From: Candidatus Woesearchaeota archaeon
GTDB taxonomy: Archaea > Nanobdellota > Nanobdellia > Pacearchaeales > GW2011-AR1
Assembly: GCA_964395405.1 (NCBI GenBank)
Contig: CAYNAV010000004.1
Span: forward strand, 1 to 36,345
Direction: 5' to 3'
Length of the DNA: 36,345 bases
Part shown: positions 1 through 27,758 of the stretch, in pieces
Position numbering within the stretch: position 1 is the stretch's first letter
Layout of the letters: every line of letters begins with the position of its first letter
The notes under the pieces: model-generated
Databases searched by the model: none
The model's input: the letters and a program-made list of their open reading frames with translations, nothing else
Told to the model about the DNA's origin: nothing
Made by a program: the position numbers and the translations under genes

Positions 1-3000
1 ATATTTGTATTCATTTTATTTGGGATTATTTTGGCTGGGGGGGTTGGGGCGACTGCTCCTAGCTGGGGTAGTTCTTCCACTATAAATTACACCGCTATTG
101 AAGGGGTCAGTTATTATCATAATCTCAGCAGCAATATTACGGGTTTTAATAATGATGTAACTTTTGCTATAGATACTACGCCGCCAAATTATTATATTTA
201 TTGGACTACTTCAAATGGTCGGAGTTCTGTTTCTGTTGCAACTATTTCTTCATGGATTAATATTACTAATTCATCATCTGGCAACTTAACAATTAATGCA
301 AGATATGACAATCAAACTGGTTTTTTTGAGATTCCCATTCAGGCAAAAAATATTACTGATGATTCTGCCACAACAGAAGTTTTTGAGTTCATAATAAATG
401 CAACAAACGATGCGCCTAATTTTACATCTGCTGTTAACAGCAGTTATAGTGTTCCCATAAGCTCGGGTAACTATTCATTAAATCTTTATGCAACAGACGA
501 GGAGATGCATTATCCCCTTGCATTTAATTATACGGTCTATAATTGTAGTGTTTCTAGTTTAAGCACAAGATACAACTCAACAGGAGACGATAATTGTACT
601 TTAACAATCTCAAATGCTACATTATCTCAAACATCTTATCAGATAAATCTTACAGGCTTGACAAGTAATGATATGGGGGTTTATAATTTAAGTGTTTGCG
701 TAATGGATAATGCAACTGCTAATGTTTCGAGGATTCCTTTGTATGCTGATGCAAGTTATAATGACACTAAGTTTACATGTAAAAATATTAAACTAAATAT
801 CCAGTCTGCTTTGACGATTACTTCCAATTGTTCTGGATTAAATTTGACCGAAGATGGTATTTTGGGCTGTAGGATTAATGTTAGTACCAAAGGGGAGAGC
901 GACAATTTAATTTTATGGAGCAACGCTTCGTTGAGAGGGTATACTGCTTTGTCCGGAGCATTTAATCAAAGTTGGTTTTACTTTTATAATGCTTCTTCTG
1001 CTGAAAACTTCTTTTATTATGTTGATATTAATGTATCCCTTGATAAATTAAAAGTGGGAAACTGGTCCATTAATTTTACTGTTAATGATACAACTTCTTC
1101 AGAGGTTGGTTCAGCATTGTTTTATATCTATGTTAACTGGTCTGGAACTAATTCACTTCCTGCAATGACGTCTATTTCTAACATTAACAATTTATCAGTT
1201 AATTATTTTAAAGAGATTTATTTTAATGTTTCGGATAATGATATTATTGTTCCAGATAAAAATGTGAGAAATGAGACCTTTAATTATTCTTATACTGTTC
1301 TTAATCAAACAGATTTATCAGTGTTAGCTAATTTTAGCAGTGATTTTAATTTTTCTAGAATTGGAGATGTTGCAGGAACTAACAAAACTAGAATGAAGAT
1401 ATTATTCACGCCTAATTCTAGCGAGGCAGGTAATTATACTATTAATGTAACTGCAACCGATAGTTTTGGAGAGGTAACTTTTTCTTTGTTTAATGTCTCT
1501 ATTTTGAGCAATAGCGCTCCTCAATGGAATAGCAGTGTTAATTATGTTTTTAATTTAAATACAAGTACTGTGGCAGGTGACGAGAGCTTTAGATTTACAT
1601 TAAATCTCACAAATGCTTCTGGATTGGCTTATGCTTTCGATAATGAGTTGGATGAAATTAGTTTTACAAATGGTTCTGCATTTACTCATTTTAATCTTTC
1701 TAACGGTGTTATTAATTTTATCCCGTGGAAGCAAGATATTGGCTCTTGGAATATTAGCATTACTGCTACAGATACGCTTGGTCTGACTAATACAACTTAT
1801 TTTATTTTTAATATAAGCAATAATAATACTTCTCCGAAGATTATCTCTTTGACTTCCAATGATGACGAATCCCCGATAACAAATGGAAGCAGTGTTACTT
1901 GGGCAGAAGATGCTATTTTGACTTTTGAGTTGAGTATCAATGATACTGATTTATTAATTATAAATAAAAGTGTCTATAATGAATCTTTGAATGTTGATAT
2001 GGTTGTTGCATATCTAAATGGGACTGCTGTTTCTGATTTTTTTAACTTTAACTTTAATTCGAATAGCAGTGAAAACCAGACTTTCCTAGGAAGCTTTACA
2101 CCCGCTGCGAGTCAAATTGGGAATTATAGTGTTGTACTTAGTGTGACGGACAATAGCAGTGCCGTTGCATATCTTAATTTTAATGTTAATATAACATCTA
2201 CAGCTGACGCTCCGAATTTATCTTTAATTTCAAATCAATTTAAAACAACAAATGAGGCTCTTTATTTAGATATCAATGCGACTGATGAAGAAGATGGTAG
2301 TGATAGCTCTGGGAATTTAGTCTTTGCGATTTATAACTTAACTGCTGGAGGGAATTTCATTAATTCTTCTAATTTTAACTCTACTACTGGTGTTATTAAT
2401 CTGACAAGCCTTGAGGGATATGCTGGGCTTTGGACGTTTAATGTAACAGTTAATGATACTAATAATGATACTGATTCACAAGAGTTCAATATTACAATTT
2501 ATGGCCCTTATAGCTTGACATCTCCTTCTGAGGAAGATGTTTTTAACTTTACTGAAAATATAGCAGATAATTTTAGTTTCGCATTAAATCATTCCGTCGG
2601 AGATAACTTGACTTATGAGTTGTGGATGAATAATATTACCTGTTCTTATCAAAATAATTCTAATTGTACTTATTCCAATATGAGCTTAGTACAGTCTGCA
2701 AATAATTCTGGAAATGGGAGTTTATTTAACTGGAGTTTTACACCGAGCTACTGGGACGAGACTTATGGAAATTATAAAAATCTGACCTTGAGAGTTTATC
2801 CAGCAACATTGGAATTGAATTCAACACAAAAAACTTTGATTTCACAGAACTTTACATTTTATCTTAATATTAGTCATACTAATTATCCTGTTGTTGTTGT
2901 GCAGAATATTCCAAATCCTTATTCCAGCACGACTTATGGTTCAACTACCCCGATTACTATTGATTTAACTTCTTATTTTAGAGATATAGACTATCTAGAT

Positions 3001-3954
3001 GGTTATTATCTGCAAGATGTTATATTCAATATAACTACAAATGTCTCGAATAGCATTGTTCGAGCTGAGAGTTACGAGACGGCTAATCGATTGCCTTGGA
3101 ACGGCACAATTAGTGATTGGAGTTTGCAATTATATGGGGAAGAAGCAGGATCAGAGCAGATTACGATTGTTGCAAATGATTCTAATAGCTCTTCCACAAA
3201 TGGGCCATTTACAGTTACATTTACCGCTCCAAGCACAACCCCTGTGGCAACCCCCACATCTAGTGGAGGAGGAGGAAGTAGTATTAAACATTATTCATTA
3301 AGAATAATTACTCCTGCAGATATTATTGTTTCAGAGAACAATTTTATTTCAGTTCCGTTTTCGGTTGAGAATAATGGAGAAATAGATCTTGCAGGAATAA
3401 ATCTGAGCACGATGGTCTTTTATGAAAATTTATTTTCCGATGCAGTTAGTATTTCTCTTGAAGATGCATATATAGACAAACTTGGTTTTGGGCAGTCAAA
3501 AAATTTTACAATGACTATTCGTGCAAATACTCATGTCGCAGGAAAGTATAAGGCGACTGTTTATGCAGATATTACTTCTCCAAAGTTTTCAGATTGGGGA
3601 GATTTTTATATTGAGTTAAGAAAAACAAATGAATCAGAAGCAGAGCAGATGCTATTATTTACTGAGAAACTTATTTCGGAAAATCCAAAGTGTATAGAAC
3701 TTACCGAGTTGCTTAATGAGGCACGAAAGCTGTTGGACAATGCAGATTATAGCGCTTCTTTTCAAAAATCAAAAGAGGCACTTAATGCTTGTGAAAATGC
3801 AATATCCTCAAATGAGCAAGTTAATTATAGGACTGGAGAAACGCAAGATTTATTTACATATATAGGATACAGTACTTTGGTTGTATTTGGAATTGGTTTT
3901 ATTTTTTATATTTATAAAAGAGTAAGGTTTAATAAATCAAAAATCAATGACTAG
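1..3954 (+). CDS. Large cell-surface glycoprotein/adhesin with cadherin/Ig-like repeats and C-terminal TM anchor (5' partial)
   Basis: The frame is open from base 1 (IFVFILFGIILAGGVGA, a signal-peptide h-region), so the true start lies left of the window. Very dense N-x-S/T sequons, repeated beta modules (NDAPNF, NSAPQW, ADAPNL, ATDEED), a PSTTPVATPTSSGGGG linker, a CARDB-like domain (VENNGEIDL), then a TM helix and basic tail (YIGYSTLVVFGIGFIFYIYKRVR). Confidence 0.8.
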   Translation: MFVFILFGIILAGGVGATAPSWGSSSTINYTAIEGVSYYHNLSSNITGFNNDVTFAIDTTPPNYYIYWTTSNGRSSVSVATISSWINITNSSSGNLTINARYDNQTGFFEIPIQAKNITDDSATTEVFEFIINATNDAPNFTSAVNSSYSVPISSGNYSLNLYATDEEMHYPLAFNYTVYNCSVSSLSTRYNSTGDDNCTLTISNATLSQTSYQINLTGLTSNDMGVYNLSVCVMDNATANVSRIPLYADASYNDTKFTCKNIKLNIQSALTITSNCSGLNLTEDGILGCRINVSTKGESDNLILWSNASLRGYTALSGAFNQSWFYFYNASSAENFFYYVDINVSLDKLKVGNWSINFTVNDTTSSEVGSALFYIYVNWSGTNSLPAMTSISNINNLSVNYFKEIYFNVSDNDIIVPDKNVRNETFNYSYTVLNQTDLSVLANFSSDFNFSRIGDVAGTNKTRMKILFTPNSSEAGNYTINVTATDSFGEVTFSLFNVSILSNSAPQWNSSVNYVFNLNTSTVAGDESFRFTLNLTNASGLAYAFDNELDEISFTNGSAFTHFNLSNGVINFIPWKQDIGSWNISITATDTLGLTNTTYFIFNISNNNTSPKIISLTSNDDESPITNGSSVTWAEDAILTFELSINDTDLLIINKSVYNESLNVDMVVAYLNGTAVSDFFNFNFNSNSSENQTFLGSFTPAASQIGNYSVVLSVTDNSSAVAYLNFNVNITSTADAPNLSLISNQFKTTNEALYLDINATDEEDGSDSSGNLVFAIYNLTAGGNFINSSNFNSTTGVINLTSLEGYAGLWTFNVTVNDTNNDTDSQEFNITIYGPYSLTSPSEEDVFNFTENIADNFSFALNHSVGDNLTYELWMNNITCSYQNNSNCTYSNMSLVQSANNSGNGSLFNWSFTPSYWDETYGNYKNLTLRVYPATLELNSTQKTLISQNFTFYLNISHTNYPVVVVQNIPNPYSSTTYGSTTPITIDLTSYFRDIDYLDGYYLQDVIFNITTNVSNSIVRAESYETANRLPWNGTISDWSLQLYGEEAGSEQITIVANDSNSSSTNGPFTVTFTAPSTTPVATPTSSGGGGSSIKHYSLRIITPADIIVSENNFISVPFSVENNGEIDLAGINLSTMVFYENLFSDAVSISLEDAYIDKLGFGQSKNFTMTIRANTHVAGKYKATVYADITSPKFSDWGDFYIELRKTNESEAEQMLLFTEKLISENPKCIELTELLNEARKLLDNADYSASFQKSKEALNACENAISSNEQVNYRTGETQDLFTYIGYSTLVVFGIGFIFYIYKRVRFNKSKIND

Positions 3955-3956
3955 TA

Positions 3957-3963
3957 GAGGTGA
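3957..3963 (+). promoter_or_regulatory. Shine-Dalgarno GAGGTGA before moxR
   Basis: Archaeal-type SD, 3 nt before ATG 3967. Confidence 0.6.
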
Positions 3964-3966
3964 ATA

Positions 3967-4953
3967 ATGAAAAAAAGAGAAAATGCAGCTTTAGCAAGGG
4001 ATGTTTCTCATGTGCCAAAAGTTATAAATGGCATTGAAGAAGAAATGTCTAAAATAATTGTTGGACAAAGGGAGATTATTCATGGAATTATTCGAGCAAT
4101 ATTATGTGATGGGCATGTTCTTGTTGAAGGTGTTCCTGGTGTTGCTAAAACATTAATTGTAAAATCCATTGCAAAAATAATGGGTTGTGATTCAAAGAGA
4201 GTCCAGTTTACTGTGGATCTTTTACCTACAGATATTACAGGGATTATGAGTTATGATCCTAAAAAAGGATTTGAGATTGTTCGGGGCCCTATTTTTACTA
4301 ACTTTATGATTGCCGATGAAATAAACAGAAGTCCTCCAAAAACACAATCGGCTCTTCTTGAAGCGATGCAGGAGAAAGCAGTAACTATTTCAAGGAAGAC
4401 ATATAATTTACCTCTGCCTTTTTTTGTTATGGCTACTGAAAATCCGCTAGAAGTAAGCGGAGTATACAAATTGCCTGAAGCACAGGTGGATAGATTTTTA
4501 TTTAAATTACTTGTTGAGTATCCAAGCCAAAAAGAGGAGTTTATGATTCTTGATCAAAATATTTCTATTAGGAAATTTGAGGACTTTAAGATTAAAAGTA
4601 TACTCAACCCTAAAAAAATTATAGATTTGCAAAAACAAGTAAAACAAGTTTTTGCATCTGATGCAATCAAGAGTTATATTCTGGATATTGTTAATGAAAC
4701 GAGGAATAGTTGTACTGAGTATGGGCGGTTTATTTCATATGGTGCAAGCCCAAGAGCGTCCATTGCATTGATATTATCTTCTAAAGCAGAAGCACTAATG
4801 CATGGAAGAAATTATGTAATTCCTTCAGATGTAAAAGAGGTTGCACACCCTGTTTTAAGACATAGGCTTATCTTGAATTATGAGGCTGAGGCAGAGAAGA
4901 TATCATCTGATAAGATCATAAATCATATTCTGAACAGGGTTAGGGCACCCTGA
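3967..4953 (+). CDS. moxR: MoxR-family AAA+ ATPase
   Basis: Walker A GVPGVAKT, RVQFTVDLLPTDITG, Walker B region DEINRSPPKTQSALLEAMQE, GASPRA and VLRHRL. Confidence 0.95.
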   Translation: MKKRENAALARDVSHVPKVINGIEEEMSKIIVGQREIIHGIIRAILCDGHVLVEGVPGVAKTLIVKSIAKIMGCDSKRVQFTVDLLPTDITGIMSYDPKKGFEIVRGPIFTNFMIADEINRSPPKTQSALLEAMQEKAVTISRKTYNLPLPFFVMATENPLEVSGVYKLPEAQVDRFLFKLLVEYPSQKEEFMILDQNISIRKFEDFKIKSILNPKKIIDLQKQVKQVFASDAIKSYILDIVNETRNSCTEYGRFISYGASPRASIALILSSKAEALMHGRNYVIPSDVKEVAHPVLRHRLILNYEAEAEKISSDKIINHILNRVRAP

Positions 4954-4957
4954 TAAA

Positions 4958-5845
4958 ATGAAAGGTAAGTTTGAAGTTAATTTTGCAGGAGTTATCTCTG
5001 AATTTGAAAGAGCGATTCAGAAATTCCAGGTGAAGAGAATTCTTTATAAGACTGTTTTTAGAGGAAAGGGCCTTGAATTTGACAGCTATAGGGATTTTGA
5101 ATCTGATGATGATTCTGGCATGATTGACTGGAAGGCGAGTTTAAGGGGAAATAAGCTTCTCGCTAAGAAGTATGTTGAGGAAAGAGATATGGACATTTAT
5201 TTTTTTGTGGATGTGAGTAATAGCATGCTTTTTGGCTCTGGAAAGGTTTTAAAAGCAGAGTATGCCGCAGAACTTATTGCTTCTTTAAGCCATTTAATTA
5301 TGAATTCAGGAGATAATGTGGGGCTTGTGTTCTTTTCTGATAAAATTGTTAAGGTGCTTAGACCTTTAAGGGATGCAAATCATTTTGGAATTGAAACATC
5401 GATATTGTCCGATGCTGCTTATTATGGCGGCGGTTTTGATTTTAATAGTGCTGTTGATTTTGCTCTTAAAACAATAGTATCGCCTTCTTCAATGATTATT
5501 CTTGTTTCTGATTTTATTAGGATGAATGATAAATGTGAAAATCACCTAAAGTTGCTTGCTGCAAGATTTGAAACAATAGCTATTATGATAAGGGATCCTT
5601 TTGACGAGGAACTTCCAAATGTAAAAGGTCAGATGATAGTTCAAGACCCTTATTCAGGCAATCAAATGCTTATAGATCCCTCGTTGATTGCGGACCAATA
5701 TAAGCAGAATGCGTTGAAGCATAAGGAAAAGATAATTAGAATATTTAGAGAGTCTGGTGTTGATTTCTTTGAGATTAATACTAATAAAAGCTTTATTATT
5801 CCTTTTGTTTCATTCCTAAAAAGAAGAGCTGGAGGAGGGATATAA
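4958..5845 (+). CDS. DUF58 / vWA-domain MoxR partner
   Basis: GLEFDSYRDFESDDDSGMIDWKASLR (DUF58 signature), DVSNSM MIDAS-like motif, ILVSDF; directly follows moxR. Confidence 0.92.
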   Translation: MKGKFEVNFAGVISEFERAIQKFQVKRILYKTVFRGKGLEFDSYRDFESDDDSGMIDWKASLRGNKLLAKKYVEERDMDIYFFVDVSNSMLFGSGKVLKAEYAAELIASLSHLIMNSGDNVGLVFFSDKIVKVLRPLRDANHFGIETSILSDAAYYGGGFDFNSAVDFALKTIVSPSSMIILVSDFIRMNDKCENHLKLLAARFETIAIMIRDPFDEELPNVKGQMIVQDPYSGNQMLIDPSLIADQYKQNALKHKEKIIRIFRESGVDFFEINTNKSFIIPFVSFLKRRAGGGI

Positions 5846-6771
5846 TGGCTATTGTGAGTTTTTTATACCCTCGATTTTTGCTTTTGCTTTTTATTGTGCC
5901 TTTTTTCATATTTGTTTATTTTTTAAGCATGGTTTATAAAAAGAAAAGAGCGGTTGTCTTTTCAAATTTCGAGGCGATAGAAAGATTTTATGATGTAGAA
6001 TTCTTTTCAAAGAATTTTATTGCTCTTTACGTAAATATTGCAATTGTCTGCTTTATTGTTTTTGCACTTGCAGGAACTAATATTAACTTCGAGGCTAATA
6101 CAAGCACATATTCTTACGTTCTTCTTATTGATAATTCCTTGAGTATGAAAACGGCAGACATTCTTCCTAGCAGGCTTGAGGCTGCTAAGATTTCTGCAGG
6201 AAAGTTTGTGGACCTTCTTCCACCGGGAGTTGAGGTTGGTGTGGTTTCTTTTTCTGGGGATGCGGAAGTCATGCAGGAATTAACCTCTTTGAAATATAAG
6301 CTTAAGGAATCTATTAATGTGATTGATTTTGGTGTAGTTCAGGGAACAAATGTCTATAATGCTCTTCTTTCAGTAAAAAGGATTTTTGGGGATGCTCCAA
6401 GAAAGGCGGTTATTTTAATAAGTGATGGTCAGCTTAATGTTGGAAGTGCATCTCAAGTTGTGAGATATGCAAATCAGGAAAATTTTGTTGTGGATACTCT
6501 TGCAGTAGGGACTGCAGATGGGGGGATAACAGAAATGGATACTGTTTCGAAGTTAGATGAGGATTTTTTAAAATCTCTGGCGTTTGAAACTCAAGGTCAC
6601 TTTTTTACTGTTGAGGATAATGCCGGTTTTGACGAGTCTTTTAATGAGATTCTTTATGATACTAATAAAGATGTTTCTTTTGATATTTCTATGTATCTTT
6701 TGCTTGCGGCGATTCTTTTGTTTTGTTTTAGCTGGATAGCTGATAATTTCAGGTTTAAGATAACTTCTTGA
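5845..6771 (+). CDS. BatA-like membrane vWA-domain protein
   Basis: N-terminal TM (FLYPRFLLLLFIVP), MIDAS DNSLS...T...ISDG, SRLEAAK, C-terminal TM; TAATG overlap with the upstream gene. Confidence 0.9.
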   Translation: MAIVSFLYPRFLLLLFIVPFFIFVYFLSMVYKKKRAVVFSNFEAIERFYDVEFFSKNFIALYVNIAIVCFIVFALAGTNINFEANTSTYSYVLLIDNSLSMKTADILPSRLEAAKISAGKFVDLLPPGVEVGVVSFSGDAEVMQELTSLKYKLKESINVIDFGVVQGTNVYNALLSVKRIFGDAPRKAVILISDGQLNVGSASQVVRYANQENFVVDTLAVGTADGGITEMDTVSKLDEDFLKSLAFETQGHFFTVEDNAGFDESFNEILYDTNKDVSFDISMYLLLAAILLFCFSWIADNFRFKITS

Positions 6772-8315: not shown

Positions 8316-9068
8316 TTAATGTTTTCTTCCAGAATGTTTAATTTTTATCTTTCTATGATTTTTTATAATCCTTGATGTCCTTATTGTTTTTGCCTTGTGA
8401 TGAATTGTCTTAGCATTGTGGTGGACTATTTTAGCTTTATGGTGCGTCATCTTAGTGTTGTGATGAACTGTCTTAATTTTATGATGGGCTTTTATGCTCT
8501 TTTCTAATTTTCTCTTTCTAATTTTCTCTTTTCTGTGGCTGAATTCTGATTTGAATGAGTTAAGAATTTTTCTGAAAAATCCTTGGTTTTCTAGTTGTTT
8601 CCTTAATTTTGCCATGTCTTTATTTCTTATTATTCTTATAAGTTCTGAGGAGAGCTCATTTAATTTTTCATTGTCTATCTTTTCTGGGAAGTAATAAACA
8701 TGCATCATCTCTTCGGATAATTCTGCTAATTCCAATTCCTTTATTTTTTTTAGTTCGTCGATAAGAAGAGGGTATTCTTCCCTTTGGGCGGAAGCAAGAT
8801 ACTCTTTAATCACTTCTTTCACTATTTCACTTATTGAATCTAACTTTTCTTTTGGAGTCTTATTAGTGTGATTTATCATTCTTATTCTTTTTATTCTTGG
8901 GTCTTCAGGAAGTGTTAACCCTATCCTACTTTTCATTTTGGGGTCTTTTTTCATTTTTCTTTCAAATAATGCAAGGATTAAAGCGAGAATTATTGCAAGC
9001 AAAACAATCCCGATAAGAAGATAAGTCGGACTATCTAAGATTTGTTCTAGAATATTATTCCACCCCAT
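8316..9068 (-). CDS. Single-pass membrane protein with His/Lys-rich repetitive C-tail
   Basis: 250-aa ORF; TM YLLIGIVLLAIILALILALF; TATA-like TTTTTATA about 25-30 nt upstream; HH heptad repeats. Confidence 0.8.
   Translation of the reverse strand: MGWNNILEQILDSPTYLLIGIVLLAIILALILALFERKMKKDPKMKSRIGLTLPEDPRIKRIRMINHTNKTPKEKLDSISEIVKEVIKEYLASAQREEYPLLIDELKKIKELELAELSEEMMHVYYFPEKIDNEKLNELSSELIRIIRNKDMAKLRKQLENQGFFRKILNSFKSEFSHRKEKIRKRKLEKSIKAHHKIKTVHHNTKMTHHKAKIVHHNAKTIHHKAKTIRTSRIIKNHRKIKIKHSGRKH
8383..8496 (-). repeat. Degenerate 21-bp tandem repeat (about 5 units) encoding HH-containing heptads
   Basis: IKAHHKI KTVHHNT KMTHHKA KIVHHNA KTIHHKA KTI. Confidence 0.8.
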
Positions 9069-9099
9069 AGATTATAGACAATTTGTTAATATAAAAACC

Positions 9100-10143
9100 T
9101 TATGTTGATGGATTTTTAATTATTTTTAGGATGTTTTCCTTAAATTGTTCTAGTAAGTCAATTGGGACTGTTGCGCCACATGCTTCTTCATGTCCCCCGC
9201 CAGTTGAGTCCTCTATGTCTTGGATTGCTTTTAGTGTTATTTCCTTTGCATTTTTTCCTCTTATGGATATATTTGCCCTATCTTGCCTTTTGAATGCGAC
9301 TATTATTGTCTTTTTTTTATTTCTAAAGTATAGCTTGTTTGACAGTTCAGAGGATATGCTTATTGTTCCAGAATAGGAGAAAAATATAATGTTCGGTAGT
9401 GTTTGTTGTGCCTCTGCTTTTTCTACGAGTTTGCTTAACATTGTGTTTAGTTCTTTGTATCTTTTATGAAGGTGGTAAGTCTGGCTATTTTCCTCTAATA
9501 AATCGTGAGGCGAATTTATTTTTTGAAGGTACCTTATGAGGTTTAGAACATTTGTTGTTGTATCTTTTAACCCAAAGTTTAGCATATTTACTATTTTTCC
9601 TATTTCTGTTAAGTAGATGGAATCAAAAGCATTCCAAGAATTATCAAAAAGCTCAGGACACTCTTTTGCAAACTCTTCTGAAAAATCTGGCTTATATACA
9701 TCTCCGATACAGCCAATCATTGCAAGCCATATATCTTGTTTTCTTTTGAAAATACTTTGGGCAATATAGGTTACTGGCTCTTCACTGGGCGATGAATTGT
9801 AGTAATATACTTTTTTTATGATATCTTCTTCGACCTGGACATTGTGGTGATCAATCCAGATTATTGGAATGTTTCTTTCAATGACTTCATTTATGAATTC
9901 ACTGCTTACTCTTGGCTTGTCCAGTATAAATATTGCGTCTGGATTTAACTCATTTATTTTTCTTAGGTATTCTTTGTTTAACTCGGGGAATGATTTTATT
10001 GCAACTCCTTTTCCCCTGTCTAAAGCTCTTCTTAAAATGAGGAAACTGCATAGTCCGTCCGCATCATTATCAAAAAAGAAAAGGGGATTTTGAGATTTTT
10101 CCAGATGTTCGCGAATTTCATTTAGCTTTTTTTGAGGTAACAT
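9100..10143 (-). CDS. DHH-DHHA1 family phosphoesterase
   Basis: Motif I DNDADG, motif II ILD, motif III WIDHH, motif IV GCIGDV, and DHHA1 SIRG...GGGHEEACG. Confidence 0.92.
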   Translation of the reverse strand: MLPQKKLNEIREHLEKSQNPLFFFDNDADGLCSFLILRRALDRGKGVAIKSFPELNKEYLRKINELNPDAIFILDKPRVSSEFINEVIERNIPIIWIDHHNVQVEEDIIKKVYYYNSSPSEEPVTYIAQSIFKRKQDIWLAMIGCIGDVYKPDFSEEFAKECPELFDNSWNAFDSIYLTEIGKIVNMLNFGLKDTTTNVLNLIRYLQKINSPHDLLEENSQTYHLHKRYKELNTMLSKLVEKAEAQQTLPNIIFFSYSGTISISSELSNKLYFRNKKKTIIVAFKRQDRANISIRGKNAKEITLKAIQDIEDSTGGGHEEACGATVPIDLLEQFKENILKIIKNPST

Positions 10144-10185
10144 TGTTTTTTATTAGGGGGTATTAATAGTTTAAAAAGATTGGTT

Positions 10186-11214
10186 TTAACTTAAAACTTT
10201 TCCCTCAAGAATCTGTGTTCTAAGGTTGTCTATTTCTTGTTTTATTTTGGAAGCTCTGTTTTTAAGAAGCGCTTCTAATTCTTCTTGGTTAGCTTCAAAG
10301 ATTCCTGAAAGGGTTTTGAATTGCGTTACTATTTGTGAGATTTCTTTTTCATTTAATGTAAGGTGAGAGAGGAATCTTATTCCTTCAGGGGAAATCGTTT
10401 CTTCAAGAGGTTTTTCAACAATAAGTCTGGATAATGCCTCTAAATCTAAAATTCCATCCAAGGTTAGGTTTGAAAGAAGGATTTTTGTCTTTTTGAGCGA
10501 CCATCTAGAATAGTCTCTTATTATTTTGTCTTCTGTTTTTTCAACATCTTTTAAGAGTTCTTTGTATCTTAGATACATTATGTTTCCTTCTTTTCCAAGT
10601 TCTGTAAAGCTTCTTTTTATGTTCTCAGATATTTTTAATATTAGTTCTGCTCTTTGAATTACCTTACATGCATCAGAGACAGAAACAAGTTCGGACATTT
10701 CGAGGATATTAAGATTACTAATTAGTTCATCAAAAATTTCTCTTTGTTTCTCCAGAACTTGAAGATTTGAGGAAACATCTCTTAACAATTCTTCTGAAGC
10801 TCTAAGGTAATATCTTGTTTTTCCAATATAGATTGTTGTCTTGTTTCTTCTTTCTGATACTGCTATTACAAATGTGTTTGCTTGTTTTGCAGTTCTTTCA
10901 CCAGCCTTATGACGGGTTCCAGTCTCATTTGAAGTTATTGTATTGTCTGGAGCTAAGAGGACATTTGCATATAAAATCCTCTTTAAATCTGAAGAAACGA
11001 TGATTGCTCCATCCATTTTGCATAATTCAAAGAGTCTTTGGGGTGTAAATCTACAATTTACCCTAAATCCGCCATCAATTATCTTCTGAACTTCTGGATT
11101 ATCAAAGACAATTAAAGCCCCTAATCCAGAACCTAGCAAATCATTTATCACTGTTCTTAATGGGGTTCCGGGAGATACTTTTTTTAGGTAATCTAGCAGT
11201 ATTTTTTCTTCCAT
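10186..11214 (-). CDS. disA: DNA integrity scanning protein DisA / diadenylate cyclase
   Basis: PGTPLR N-terminus, FTPQRLFELCKMDGAII (catalytic DGA), ETGTRHKAGER (RHR-like), VSERR, a helical linker and an HhH-like C-terminus (IVTQFKTLSGIFEANQEEL). Confidence 0.93.
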   Translation of the reverse strand: MEEKILLDYLKKVSPGTPLRTVINDLLGSGLGALIVFDNPEVQKIIDGGFRVNCRFTPQRLFELCKMDGAIIVSSDLKRILYANVLLAPDNTITSNETGTRHKAGERTAKQANTFVIAVSERRNKTTIYIGKTRYYLRASEELLRDVSSNLQVLEKQREIFDELISNLNILEMSELVSVSDACKVIQRAELILKISENIKRSFTELGKEGNIMYLRYKELLKDVEKTEDKIIRDYSRWSLKKTKILLSNLTLDGILDLEALSRLIVEKPLEETISPEGIRFLSHLTLNEKEISQIVTQFKTLSGIFEANQEELEALLKNRASKIKQEIDNLRTQILEGKVLS

Positions 11215-11459
11215 TGTTTGAAAATGTGGATGAAGTATTTATATGTTTTTGCTTATTTGATTGTTATTTTAAAGGGGTGGTGGGTTTTTTGCTTGTTTTC
11301 GGGTTTTTGTTGGTATTTGCTCAAGACTGTGAGCTTTGTTAGGCATTATATTCTTAATATTTAATTTATTGGTTAGGTTTTTTATTTAAAATATCCCGAC
11401 CCCTCATTTTTAATAGAACTTCCTCAATAAAAATATAAAAACCCTGTTAAACTAGGTTT

Positions 11460-13154
11460 ATGATGGATTATTCGATAACTTGCGAGGTTTACAATGAGCT
11501 TGAGTCAACTACCAAGGGGCTTGAGAAAACAGAAATACTTGCTAAATTTCTTGATAAGATTAAGGGAAGCTCGGAGGTAATATATTTATTGAAGGGGCGA
11601 GTTTTTCCTGATTATGACGAGAGAGAATTGGGGTTGTCTGAGCAACTTGTGATAAAAGCAATTTCAAAAGCAACGGGGGACAGGGAGGAAGAGGTTGTAA
11701 AAGAATTTAAAAAAATAGGCGATTTGGGGAAGGTTGCCGAAACTTTGATTAGCAGTAAGAAACAGTTCTCTTTGTTTTCAGGAAAGTTGAATAATGAAAA
11801 GGTTATTTTAAACTTGCAGAAACTTCCAGGTTTGGAGGGGAAAGGAAGTATTGATAAGAAAATTGGTTTAATTGTTGAATTGTTGCATTCTGCAAAGCCA
11901 ATTGAGGCGAGGTATATTATCCGAACAGTTTTAGGAGATTTAAAGGTTGGTGTTGGGGATGGGTTGTTAAGAGATGCGATTGTTGAATTTTGTTTTAAGC
12001 CTAAGGATATTGCAGAGAAAAAGGAATACGGGGAAAAGGTTCAACAGGCTTATGATAAACTGACTGATTTTGCAGAGGTTTTTGAAAAAGCTTGTGAAAA
12101 TAAACTAGATAAGATTTCTTTGTCTCCAGGGAGAGCCGTTAAGGTTATGCTCTTTCCGAAAGCTGAAAATATTGAAGATGCATTTAGAATTGTTGGGAAA
12201 CCGGCGGCTTTTGAATTTAAATATGATGGGTTTAGAATGATGCTTAATAAGGATGAAAATAATGAGATTAAAATTTTTACTAGAAGATTAGACAATGTTA
12301 CAAATCAGTTTCCTGATGCTGTTAAATATGTAAGGGAAAATGTTAAGGCGGAGACTTTTATTATTGATGCTGAAGCTGTTGGATACGATCCTAAGACAAA
12401 AGAGTACAAACCATTTCAGGCAATGTCACAGAGGATTAAAAGGAAGTATGATATTGAGAAGCTTGAAAAAGAGCTTCCAATTGAACTAAATGCTTTTGAT
12501 ATTATTTATTATGATGGAGAAAGCTTGATTAATAAGCCGTTTAAGGATAGAAGAAAGATTCTTGAGAAAATTATTCATGAAAAGAAACTTAAGATTAGAT
12601 TGGCTGAACAAATTATTACTGATGACGATAAAGTAGCTGAAAAGTTTTATGAAAAAGCACTGGAAGAAAGACAGGAAGGTTTGATGGTTAAGAATCTTGA
12701 TGCTCCTTATAAGCCTGGTGCGAGGATTGGGTATGCTGTTAAGTTAAAACCTGAAGCAAATGATTTTGATTTGGTTATTACTGGTGCTGAATATGGGACT
12801 GGAAAAAGGGCTGGATGGATGACTAGTTTTGATGTTTCTTGTAGGGATGAGGAAACAGGGGAATTATTAGATGTTGGAAAAGTTTCTACTGGGTTAAAGG
12901 AAAAAGAAGAGCAAGGATTAAGTTTTATTGAGCTAACTGATATTTTAAAGAAGATTATTGTAAAAGAAGAAGGAAGACATGTTTATGTTAGGCCTGAAGT
13001 TGTTGTAATTGTTGGATATCAGAATATTCAGAAGTCTCCTTCATATTCTTCTGGTTTTGCGATGAGGTTTCCAAGAATAAGGGCATTGAGACCTGATAGA
13101 GGCAAGGATGATGTTGCGACATTGAGGGATGTTGAGAAAGAAGTTGTGAAGTGA
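11460..13154 (+). CDS. lig: ATP-dependent DNA ligase (archaeal type)
   Basis: Adenylation motif EFKYDGFR, IIDAEAV, AFDIIYYDG, EGLMVK, YKPGAR, DLVITGAEYGTGKR and MRFPRI. Confidence 0.97.
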   Translation: MMDYSITCEVYNELESTTKGLEKTEILAKFLDKIKGSSEVIYLLKGRVFPDYDERELGLSEQLVIKAISKATGDREEEVVKEFKKIGDLGKVAETLISSKKQFSLFSGKLNNEKVILNLQKLPGLEGKGSIDKKIGLIVELLHSAKPIEARYIIRTVLGDLKVGVGDGLLRDAIVEFCFKPKDIAEKKEYGEKVQQAYDKLTDFAEVFEKACENKLDKISLSPGRAVKVMLFPKAENIEDAFRIVGKPAAFEFKYDGFRMMLNKDENNEIKIFTRRLDNVTNQFPDAVKYVRENVKAETFIIDAEAVGYDPKTKEYKPFQAMSQRIKRKYDIEKLEKELPIELNAFDIIYYDGESLINKPFKDRRKILEKIIHEKKLKIRLAEQIITDDDKVAEKFYEKALEERQEGLMVKNLDAPYKPGARIGYAVKLKPEANDFDLVITGAEYGTGKRAGWMTSFDVSCRDEETGELLDVGKVSTGLKEKEEQGLSFIELTDILKKIIVKEEGRHVYVRPEVVVIVGYQNIQKSPSYSSGFAMRFPRIRALRPDRGKDDVATLRDVEKEVVK

Positions 13155-26009: not shown

Positions 26010-27758
26010 TTAATCCAATATAGCTTTAATTCTTCTTACACCTTGAGAAGATGATTCTTCTTTTGTAATTTTGAAATGTCCTAGCTCTGAAAGATGAGAG
26101 ACATGGGGGCCTGCACAAATTTCTTTGCTGAACTTTCCAATGCTATAGACTTTAACTTTGTCTCCATATTTACTGTCAAAAATGCCTTGAGCGCCTTGTT
26201 TTTTTGCTTCATCAACAGTCATTTCTTCAACTTTAACCTTGAGATCGTTTTTTATCTCTTTATTAATTAAGTCTTCAATTTGTTTTATCTCTTCTGGAGT
26301 TAGTTTTCTATCAAAATTAAAATCAAATCTTAATCTTTCTGTGGTAATGTTGCTTCCTTTTTGGTGGATGTCTAGATTTTTTAGAACCATTCTTAGCGCT
26401 TGGTTTAATAAATGACATGCTGTATGAAGGCGAGTTGTTGCTTCGCTGTTGTCTGCAAGACCTGATTTGTACTGGCCGGCTGATGCTGTCCTACTTAGCT
26501 CTTGGTGCTCTTTGTTTGCTTGTTCAAATCCTTTTAAATCAACTTTAATGTTTTTCTCTTTTGCTAATTCTTCAGTCATTTCTATTGGGAAACCATAGCT
26601 TTGGTATAATAGGAATGCTTCTTTTCCTGAAATTGCTTTCTTGTCTTTTGCAACTTTATCGAATTCTTTCATTCCCTGTTCAATCGTTTTCATAAAGTTA
26701 TCTTCTTCTTTTTTTAATTCTAGGAGGATTTGGCCTTTGTTATCCTGTAAAACTTCATAGTCATCATAAATCCCAAAAACAGGAATTGCAATGTCTTGAG
26801 TAAAGTTTTCAATTCCTAAAAGTCTTCCATATCGTATTGCTCTCCTTATTAGTCTTCTTAATACGTATCCTCTTTCTGAATTGCTTGGAACTACGCCGTC
26901 TGCAATTATAAAAACAGAAGCTTTAATGTGGTCTGCTATTATTCTCATTGCTTTTTCATTTCCTTTATATGTTTTTTTTGAAATTTTTTCTATTTGACTT
27001 ATTATTGGTATCCACATATCAGCCAGATAATTATCTTCTAACCCTGTTAGTGTTGCAATTGTTCTTTCAACTCCTCCGCCAAAGTCAATGTTCTTTTGTT
27101 TTGCGAGATTGAATTTTCCCATATCCTCCTTGAGATATTGCATTAAAACATCATTTCCAATCTCGACCCAATTTTTATCATCTGGATTAAATGTCTTTGG
27201 TGCTGGTTTTGAATTAGTCTTCCAATAGAATTGTTCTGTACATGGGCCGCATGGTCCAGTGTTACCTGCTGGACCCCACCAGTTATCTTCTTCTAAAAAT
27301 GCTATTCTGTCTTTTGAGATTCCTAAAGATTCCCAGGTCTTTGCAGATTCTTCATCTTTTTCTGCATTTTTATTTCCAGAAAAGCAACTTACTGCATATC
27401 TTTCTAGTGGAATACCGAGAATTTTAGTGTGGAATTCGAATGTGAATTGAATCGCTTCTTTTTTAAAATAATCTCCTAACGACCAATTACCAAGCATTTC
27501 AAAGAGAGTATGGTGGTAAGTATCGCCTACATCTTCTATATCTCCGGTTCTAATACATCTTTGAACATTTACAAGCCTTTTTCCAAGTGGATGTTTTTCT
27601 CCTAGAAGGAATGGAACTATAGGGTGCATTCCTGCCGTGGTAAATAGAACTGTAGGATCGTTTGCAGGGACTAAGGAAGAGTTTGGTATTTCCTTATGTC
27701 CTTTTGATTTGAAAAATTCTATATATTTATTTATTAATTGTTTTCTGTTTATTTTCAT
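26010..27758 (-). CDS. alaS: Alanine--tRNA ligase (short form, no C-Ala domain)
   Basis: LFTTAGM, QRCIRTGD, FEMLGNWSLGDYFK, GPCGPCTE, RIIADH, GYVLRRLIRRA; editing motifs HTACH and CAGPH; ends at GVRRIKAILD. Confidence 0.97.
   Translation of the reverse strand: MKINRKQLINKYIEFFKSKGHKEIPNSSLVPANDPTVLFTTAGMHPIVPFLLGEKHPLGKRLVNVQRCIRTGDIEDVGDTYHHTLFEMLGNWSLGDYFKKEAIQFTFEFHTKILGIPLERYAVSCFSGNKNAEKDEESAKTWESLGISKDRIAFLEEDNWWGPAGNTGPCGPCTEQFYWKTNSKPAPKTFNPDDKNWVEIGNDVLMQYLKEDMGKFNLAKQKNIDFGGGVERTIATLTGLEDNYLADMWIPIISQIEKISKKTYKGNEKAMRIIADHIKASVFIIADGVVPSNSERGYVLRRLIRRAIRYGRLLGIENFTQDIAIPVFGIYDDYEVLQDNKGQILLELKKEEDNFMKTIEQGMKEFDKVAKDKKAISGKEAFLLYQSYGFPIEMTEELAKEKNIKVDLKGFEQANKEHQELSRTASAGQYKSGLADNSEATTRLHTACHLLNQALRMVLKNLDIHQKGSNITTERLRFDFNFDRKLTPEEIKQIEDLINKEIKNDLKVKVEEMTVDEAKKQGAQGIFDSKYGDKVKVYSIGKFSKEICAGPHVSHLSELGHFKITKEESSSQGVRRIKAILD

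Follow-up and report, generated by a model that had tools for sequence, protein, structure and literature searches.

This study concerns a two-gene locus on the minus strand of a 36,345-nucleotide (nt) stretch of DNA from a Candidatus Woesearchaeota archaeon (GenBank assembly GCA_964395405.1, contig CAYNAV010000004.1), the whole of which is referred to here as the window. The upstream gene, disA (10186..11214), encodes a genuine full-length DNA integrity scanning protein, or diadenylate cyclase, of bacterial type with 342 amino acids (aa), and the downstream gene (9100..10143) encodes a DHH/DHHA1 phosphoesterase of 347 aa whose catalytic core is of RecJ type, hereafter mini-RecJ. The mini-RecJ gene is a near-universal, single-copy housekeeping gene of its class, and with moderate confidence the locus is interpreted as an acquired bacterial-type disA placed in a two-gene transcription unit with this pre-existing gene, whose own role would be independent of DisA and of cyclic di-AMP (c-di-AMP). 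Two other readings are weighed alongside the evidence. In one, DisA makes c-di-AMP and the co-transcribed mini-RecJ, besides its housekeeping work, hydrolyses c-di-AMP and/or pApA, so balancing synthesis and removal; in the other, damaged or branched DNA is the joint target of the two proteins, with mini-RecJ in the place of RadA/Sms and perhaps binding and tuning the cyclase.

One line of evidence for this interpretation is the unequal distribution of the two genes, which was assessed in 61 relatives from the same family and order as the source genome and in an evenly drawn phylum sample of 301 genomes, 300 of them at least 90% complete, whose counts take in two unpublished genomes (G303 and G304). 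In the phylum sample, the mini-RecJ family, as recognised by its alignment profile (profile A1, E<=1e-20), is present in 285 of 301 genomes, mostly as one copy (283/299 without the two unpublished genomes), as against only 16 of 301 for DisA, of which 13 belong to family f1, one to f4 and two to f75, a family of the one other order that has DisA. Among the relatives, DisA exceeds its cut-off in 35/61 and any diadenylate cyclase (DAC) domain in 40/61, whereas a mini-RecJ orthologue (250-486 bits) occurs in 58/61 and is kept by 20 of the 21 relatives that lack DAC altogether. Since nearly all relatives carry mini-RecJ with or without DisA, it is not a dedicated c-di-AMP breaker. A comparison of 67 orthologues, in which the conservation of catalytic residues is nowhere below 97%, points the same way, as no alignment column parts the 27 disA-adjacent copies from 16 copies of DisA-less genomes of the same order. 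Both the distribution and the missing DisA-linked residue change weigh against hydrolysis of the messenger by mini-RecJ, and they contradict the proposal of a dedicated synthesis/degradation pair that had been made in an earlier note on this DNA. A side role in the breakdown of pApA or c-di-AMP is possible though unlikely, and finds no support in co-occurrence. The mini-RecJ family is also far commoner in the class than canonical archaeal RecJ (NF053576, E<=1e-40), which was matched in 66 of 151 phylum genomes and in none of those from families f12 (0/16) and f20 (0/16); in families of this kind it is perhaps mini-RecJ that serves as the principal or sole RecJ/Cdc45-like protein.

The assignment of the DHH protein to the RecJ-type enzymes rests on its ranking within the DHH superfamily by sequence profile and by fold. 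Its Pfam domains are DHH (about 9781-10071; 34.3 bits, cut-off 28.1) and DHHA1 (about 9115-9357; 33.5 bits, cut-off 25.9); these two alone were found at E<=0.01, with no TrkA_N (RCK_N) domain. All of 27 orthologues share the motifs DxDxDG, D75, DHH (98-100), GCxxD (144-148), SxR (293-295) and GGH (316-318) without variation, and this intact set of catalytic motifs would suit hydrolysis of c-di-AMP or pApA. The best NCBIfam matches, RecJ_archaeal (68.3 bits, cut-off 360) and recJ (62 bits), are both far under cut-off. Profile A1 found only RecJ-type chains in the PDB at E<1e-4, with 7bhi at the top (5.9e-12), and no NrnA, Pde2, Rv2837c or GdpP chain at E<=1, save a 33-residue GGGH match to 9r7o; single-sequence and profile searches together returned only archaeal RecJ, GAN and bacterial RecJ. 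The structure model (predicted local distance difference test, pLDDT, 94.8) gave a similar picture in Foldseek, where RecJ-Cdc45 (2e-16), MjRecJ2, PfuRecJ and bacterial RecJ were matched at about 1e-16 to 1e-13, and DhhP, Pde2 and TmPDE at 5e-10 or weaker, with Rv2837c and GdpP at about 1e-9. VIA-align, in an alignment spanning residues 1-347, likewise placed RecJ cores, PF0399 and the DHH-type PAP phosphatase 8a8k in one group with Z scores of 27-29, namely 28.9 for 5f55 (317 residues), 28.2 for 5yh1, 27.4 for 7bih and 27.2 for 8a8k, and scored the NrnA-type enzymes lower (TmPDE 19.1, Rv2837c 18.9, Bacteroides Nrn 18.7, DhhP 17.8 and Pde2 17.3). By sequence and by modelled fold, the protein thus groups with RecJ-type enzymes rather than with the stand-alone c-di-AMP/pApA phosphodiesterases, and the weaker likeness to the latter, whose activity is proven, counts further against a role in breaking down the messenger. 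The caveat, raised together with the original proposal, that the DHH gene could be of RecJ type was well placed, with RecJ chains ranking first in the profile search, in Foldseek and in VIA-align. By prediction, mini-RecJ most likely works with Mn2+ as an exonuclease or phosphatase, its substrate being single-stranded nucleic acid, short oligonucleotides or nucleotide bisphosphates.

Comparison with characterised systems shows both the closeness and the limits of this kinship. The best matches of mini-RecJ are the archaeal RecJ, GAN and RecJ-Cdc45 proteins (Mth RecJ-Cdc45 7bih/7bhi, Pyrococcus furiosus 5x4h and Methanocaldococcus jannaschii RecJ2 7ykv; arCOG00427, NF053576) together with the bacterial core (5f55, 2zxo); as in these, DHH and DHHA1 are linked by a long helix. 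Unlike archaeal RecJ/GAN proteins of about 450 aa with a CID-like insert in the middle, however, mini-RecJ is without CID or extra domains, and it lies outside the rpS15 neighbourhood, a place held in the source genome by a different DHH protein. With the stand-alone phosphodiesterases and nanoRNases (S. aureus Pde2/NrnA 8iu7, B. burgdorferi DhhP 9r7o, M. tuberculosis Rv2837c 5jju, T. maritima TM1595 5o25 and the GdpP catalytic domain 5xsi) it shares the superfamily, a similar size and the DHH and GGGH motifs, but it is clearly more distant from them, and its occurrence is untied to DAC genes. The PAP phosphatase of Methanothermococcus thermolithotrophicus (8a8k), a compact RecJ-core-like protein of about 317 aa, aligns with mini-RecJ over 295 residues at a root-mean-square deviation (rmsd) of 2.9, although the identity in this structural alignment is 17% and 8a8k was missed by the sequence searches.

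The upstream gene is equally well defined. The DisA protein carries a Pfam DAC domain (about 10822-11145; 82.9 bits, cut-off 27) and a helical linker (about 10423-10806; Pfam DisA-linker, 89.4 bits, cut-off 25), and over residues 3-336 it matches positions 6-352 of the 357 in the NCBIfam equivalog NF010009 with 325.4 bits (cut-off 201). Residues 6-332 align with Thermotoga maritima DisA (3c1y, E 5e-52), and the AlphaFold model (pLDDT 92.3) superposes on full-length DisA structures with TMq 0.91 and rmsd 1.9 for 9y9y_D and TMq 0.88 for 3c1y_A. In an alignment of 30 archaeal and two bacterial DisA sequences, the DGA motif (D68 G69 A70), G99 and R101 are invariant and H102 is at least 90% conserved; the window protein reads GTRHK, so that the third residue of the RHR motif is K and not R. 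DGA and RHR are taken here to be the catalytic motifs of the DAC domain, and with both intact the protein is predicted to be catalytically active. These results bear out the earlier description of a full-length DisA with DGA and RHK motifs. DisA is the sole DAC gene of the source genome. A second kind of DAC gene, stand-alone and with open frames of about 185-240 aa, was observed in 17 of the 61 relatives (for example G016:C1:225102-225422 and G001:C8:1606-1926) and is the only DAC in five of these 17; the source genome is without it.

The window DisA resembles bacterial DisA (TM0200 3c1y; Mycobacterium tuberculosis 9y4s/9y9y; NF010009/PRK13482) in three-domain architecture, fold, DGA and RH(R/K), but differs from it in the C-terminal domain (about 10189-10422), which has been remodelled. 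This region still aligns with the helix-hairpin-helix (HhH) domain of 3c1y and keeps its overall fold, and no Pfam HhH match was obtained at E<=0.01. In the 32-sequence alignment, the GIGEK(R/K)A hairpin is retained solely in families f8 and f75 and in bacteria, whereas the clade of the window protein has LLKNRASKI at the site of bacterial GIGEKRARAI, so that the canonical GhG hairpins are gone; in the model, residues 310-336 form one long helix. A conserved C-terminal tail with the consensus LKEQxxxGKxI (residues about 325-342; 10189-10240) has been added in this clade; neither bacterial DisA nor the DisA of families f8 and f75 has it. The HhH motif with its GhG hairpins is the DNA-binding element of bacterial DisA, and the loss of these hairpins tells against a joint action of DisA and mini-RecJ on damaged or branched DNA.

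A single origin of the archaeal disA genes is indicated by a quick tree of 111 DisA rows, in which a branch with SH-aLRT 98 separates all 89 archaeal rows from the 22 bacterial ones. The tree otherwise follows families, with f75 nesting with f8. A single acquisition of disA from Bacteria is likely, and no more than likely because the 22 bacterial rows are a biased sample. Given a lineage-restricted distribution and a single archaeal clade, one transfer would be the simplest explanation, and it may have brought disA to the ancestor of the order labelled Pacearchaeota or Woesearchaeota without radA/sms. The bacterial loci L119 and L131 have RadA/Sms immediately upstream of disA, whereas in this DPANN host the partner is mini-RecJ, downstream; the source genome, which is 89% complete, yielded no bacterial RadA/Sms over cut-off (best 31.5 bits against 403). 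The absence of Sms and the RecJ-type nature of the gene beside disA are among the points in favour of the view that mini-RecJ stands in for RadA/Sms at the DNA. As an observation on the f75 branch, the genes after disA in locus L056 (G213:C1, 5014-7202) encode a LAGLIDADG-domain protein and a reverse transcriptase, which points to a mobile-element setting and to a possible lateral arrival from an f8-like donor.

The linkage of the two genes is close and widely kept. The earlier note had pointed to a DHH-DHHA1 gene 42 nt downstream of disA on the same strand, and the interval from the disA stop to the mini-RecJ start does measure 42 nt (10144..10185, minus strand), which is at the long end of the range of 73 related pairs; the median there is 1 nt, 52 of the 73 spacers are 25 nt or shorter, and 28 pairs overlap by 1, 4 or 7 nt. 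Among 30 DisA loci of relatives, the locus of the window counted in, the orthologue follows disA directly on the same strand in 27, and judged by coordinates the genes are adjacent in two further relatives (G016, G058) and apart in four (G018, G025, G035, G055), with no orthologue found in another two (G009, G029). In a sample of named records, which partly overlaps the sample of relatives and shares with it three identical DisA sequences, the pair was present in 47 of 56 evaluable archaeal loci and in 0 of 22 bacterial loci; the nearest DisA relatives there are labelled Candidatus Pacearchaeota, Woesearchaeota or Nanoarchaeota/Nanoarchaeia. Among 13 further DisA genomes of the phylum sample, two have the genes adjacent (G278, G349), two within 0.9 kb (G331, G166) and eight apart, both f75 genomes among them, and one is without a mini-RecJ match. 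In both f75 genomes the genes lie about 195 kb apart, which does not favour a module that makes and breaks the messenger. One locus, L105, labelled Patescibacteria group bacterium, holds an archaeal-type disA/mini-RecJ pair with a DisA 54% identical to that of the window and a DHH protein scoring 411 bits; its DisA nests inside the archaeal clade, and the bin label is probably wrong.

The surroundings of the pair suggest that disA has joined a block that exists without it. With or without disA, mini-RecJ sits in a block with L15e, deoxyhypusine synthase or ornithine decarboxylase upstream and a convergent ProRS gene downstream, and in 16 of 16 inspected loci of DisA-less genomes from the same order it occupies this block with the place of disA empty. 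The gene upstream of the disA/mini-RecJ pair is variable, being of at least 12 kinds; that the pair is kept together while its flanks vary, and that its spacing is so tight, is in keeping with joint control of c-di-AMP. The commonest neighbours of mini-RecJ are the translation genes L15e, deoxyhypusine synthase and ProRS, which fits poorly with a partnership at damaged DNA.

Promoter signals are in keeping with such an arrangement. In the source genome, the starts of TATA-like hexamers peak sharply at -29..-27 from the ATG, with 360 occurrences, equal to 44% of the 815-ORF (open reading frame) count, as against 2-6% in the flanking 3-nt bins; this is the pattern expected for leaderless transcripts, and so sharp a position offers a handy check of start codons in the lineage. 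The window's disA has TATAAA starting at -29 (11238..11243, minus strand), probably the TATA box that serves as promoter for a leaderless transcript of disA and mini-RecJ. An own TATA-like element of the DHH gene had also been noted earlier, and this does exist (TTTAAA, 10170-10175, minus strand, starting 32 nt before the mini-RecJ ATG), but it is 3 nt off the modal position of the genome. In related loci, a TATA-like hexamer starting at -30..-26 was counted for 57 of 83 disA starts, whereas only 19 of 77 mini-RecJ starts downstream of disA have one; the figures for mini-RecJ are 9/16 in DisA-less genomes of the same order and 11/20 elsewhere in the class. The high count for disA and the low one for the gene behind it are read as disA having been placed between the mini-RecJ gene and its promoter.

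On these grounds a scenario may be proposed in which the acquired disA lodged between the mini-RecJ gene and its promoter. Transcription of the predicted two-gene unit would then depend on the disA TATA box, and in many pairs the stop codon of the first gene overlaps the start codon of the second. The mini-RecJ gene is probably essential, and its dependence on the disA promoter in most genomes would hold the pair together while the flanks shuffle; such dependence alone can suffice to keep the genes linked. A precise loss of disA would restore the ancestral arrangement.

Several points weigh against this interpretation. Overlapping genes, which are probably translationally coupled, often encode cooperating proteins, and structural linkage may therefore understate a functional tie. 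The superfamily of mini-RecJ is known for hydrolysis of c-di-AMP, and within DisA genomes mini-RecJ is its only member with a consistent presence. The RecJ-core enzyme 8a8k acts on a small nucleotide, so the fold leaves room for pApA or c-di-AMP as substrates. In the window itself, mini-RecJ has the TATA-like element of its own at -32, and of the 15 DisA genomes of the phylum sample with a mini-RecJ gene, seven have the two genes within 0.9 kb and eight do not, so that linkage is less general there than among the relatives. The direction of events, whether one insertion followed by losses or repeated gains, rests on the quick tree with its few and biased bacterial rows.

The alternative that survives best, in which mini-RecJ also hydrolyses c-di-AMP and/or pApA beside a DisA that makes the messenger, is possible but on the unlikely side. 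Beyond the tight spacing, the intact motifs and the precedent of 8a8k, it gains from the failure of other candidates. The source genome encodes three DHH proteins besides mini-RecJ. One (contig C9), of 445 aa, is a canonical RecJ (RecJ_archaeal 317 bits) encoded just downstream of the S13/S15 gene; the rpS15 neighbourhood is a GAN-type context in the literature (PMC3307487). Another is HAN-like (540 aa, 340 bits), and the third (contig C15) is a second short protein of 343 aa encoded just downstream of an amidase gene. The latter was considered as a DisA partner and set aside as inconsistent in occurrence, being present in 12 of 61 relatives, namely 9 of 35 with DisA and 3 of the 26 without. 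An AtaC-like phosphodiesterase was likewise rejected, the PF01663 protein of contig C12 (125.8 bits) having no informative NCBIfam match and occurring in only 2 of 61 relatives. No PgpH-type 7TM-HD domain was found in the 89% complete source genome, and no other candidate phosphodiesterase was found that co-occurs consistently with DisA.

Published archaeal systems bear on this alternative from both sides. A 2023 review gives the archaeal c-di-AMP-degrading enzyme as unknown and names DHH-DHHA1 proteins as candidates (PMC10249747), which would accommodate mini-RecJ. The archaeal phosphodiesterase described so far, in a 2025 paper (PMC12699388), is a TrkA_N-DHH-DHHA1 protein of Thermococcales, however, and mini-RecJ has no TrkA_N. 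The window locus and the DacZ/TrkA_N-DHH-DHHA1 system (Haloferax volcanii DacZ; Pyrococcus yayanosii PyaDAC/PyaPDE) are alike in combining an archaeal DAC with DHH/DHHA1 enzymes, but the window cyclase is of DisA type and not a DacZ, for whose haloarchaeal form the earlier note remarks a different architecture. According to the same paper, dacZ is absent from DPANN (PMC12699388). None of the hits listed in literature searches linked DisA or any diadenylate cyclase with Pacearchaeota, Woesearchaeota or Nanoarchaeota, although the 2023 survey of DAC architectures by Galperin, which lay outside the search, may cover it.

The weakest reading, a joint action of DisA and mini-RecJ on damaged or branched DNA, is decidedly unlikely. 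Against it stand the lost hairpins, the translation genes and a ligase adjacency confined to the window's own locus. The points in its favour include, besides the vacant place of RadA/Sms, the company that mini-RecJ keeps across the class. In 20 loci from other families of the class, its neighbours were a transglutaminase-like gene five times, L15e twice and ProRS twice, and the DNA-repair-linked gene Nre lies divergently upstream in L146, L150 and L152 and two genes off in L148; Nre was also seen near mini-RecJ in L039, L041 and L011. In the same 20 loci, a DNA ligase, GyrB, SMC, an SSB-like gene and RNR each stand beside mini-RecJ once. A DNA ligase is also the divergent neighbour of the pair in the window, but it was rejected as a conserved neighbour, as among 30 DisA loci this occurs in the window's own only. 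No canonical c-di-AMP receptor was found in the source genome (89% complete), whether TrkA_C, a PstA-type receptor or a c-di-AMP riboswitch, and this would also suit a DisA concerned with DNA.

A role of mini-RecJ as the c-di-AMP/pApA hydrolase that DPANN archaea with DisA otherwise lack, or else as a direct DisA-binding partner replacing RadA/Sms, is regarded as unlikely. Were it true, a RecJ-core nuclease would tie the processing of DNA or nanoRNA to a second messenger, the users of c-di-AMP would extend beyond those in current reviews, and a hairpin-less DisA would signal via unknown receptors.

The host is archaeal, with genes for TBP, S19e, L31e, TFE-alpha, Nre and an ATP-dependent ligase in the window, whose GC content is about 33%. 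The source assembly comprises 1.0 Mb in 105 contigs. DNA of positions 8900-11500 is present in lake-water metagenome contigs, to which all 15 runs among the matches listed belong, with no RNA run among them, and Rfam at gathering thresholds gave no match over the whole window. Elsewhere in the window, positions 1-6771 (plus strand) encode a surface-type protein of more than 1300 aa with an Ig-like KY domain, and next in line come genes for MoxR AAA ATPase, DUF58/VWA and VWA/BatA-like proteins. An ORF of 250 aa (8316-9068, minus strand) begins 31 nt past the mini-RecJ stop on the same strand; its product opens with a hydrophobic stretch, is charged in the middle and ends in a His-rich repeat (HHKAKIVHHNAKTIHHKAKTI-like). 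This ORF matched no Pfam family and was rejected as a conserved neighbour, the window's locus being the only one of the 30 DisA loci with a match. The alanyl-tRNA synthetase (AlaRS) ORF of the window (26010-27758, minus strand) has just 582 aa, comprising the catalytic domain and SAD, and a different genome of the class has, beside its mini-RecJ gene, a stand-alone ORF of 233 aa (L139, 2784-3482, minus strand) with just the end of the AlaRS core plus SAD, so that the class may hold split or shortened forms of this enzyme.

Returning to the interpretation favoured here, of an acquired disA in front of a housekeeping gene, the locus has consequences for the biology of these archaea and of both protein families. 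A DisA conserved in a large DPANN order implies either c-di-AMP signalling without a known receptor or a DisA that serves mainly for something else, and no other RecJ-family protein is kept as widely in the class as mini-RecJ. If the proposed order of events is correct, the locus would be a clean example of an acquired gene welded to a core gene through promoter takeover, and it cautions that conserved adjacency need not mean a shared pathway.

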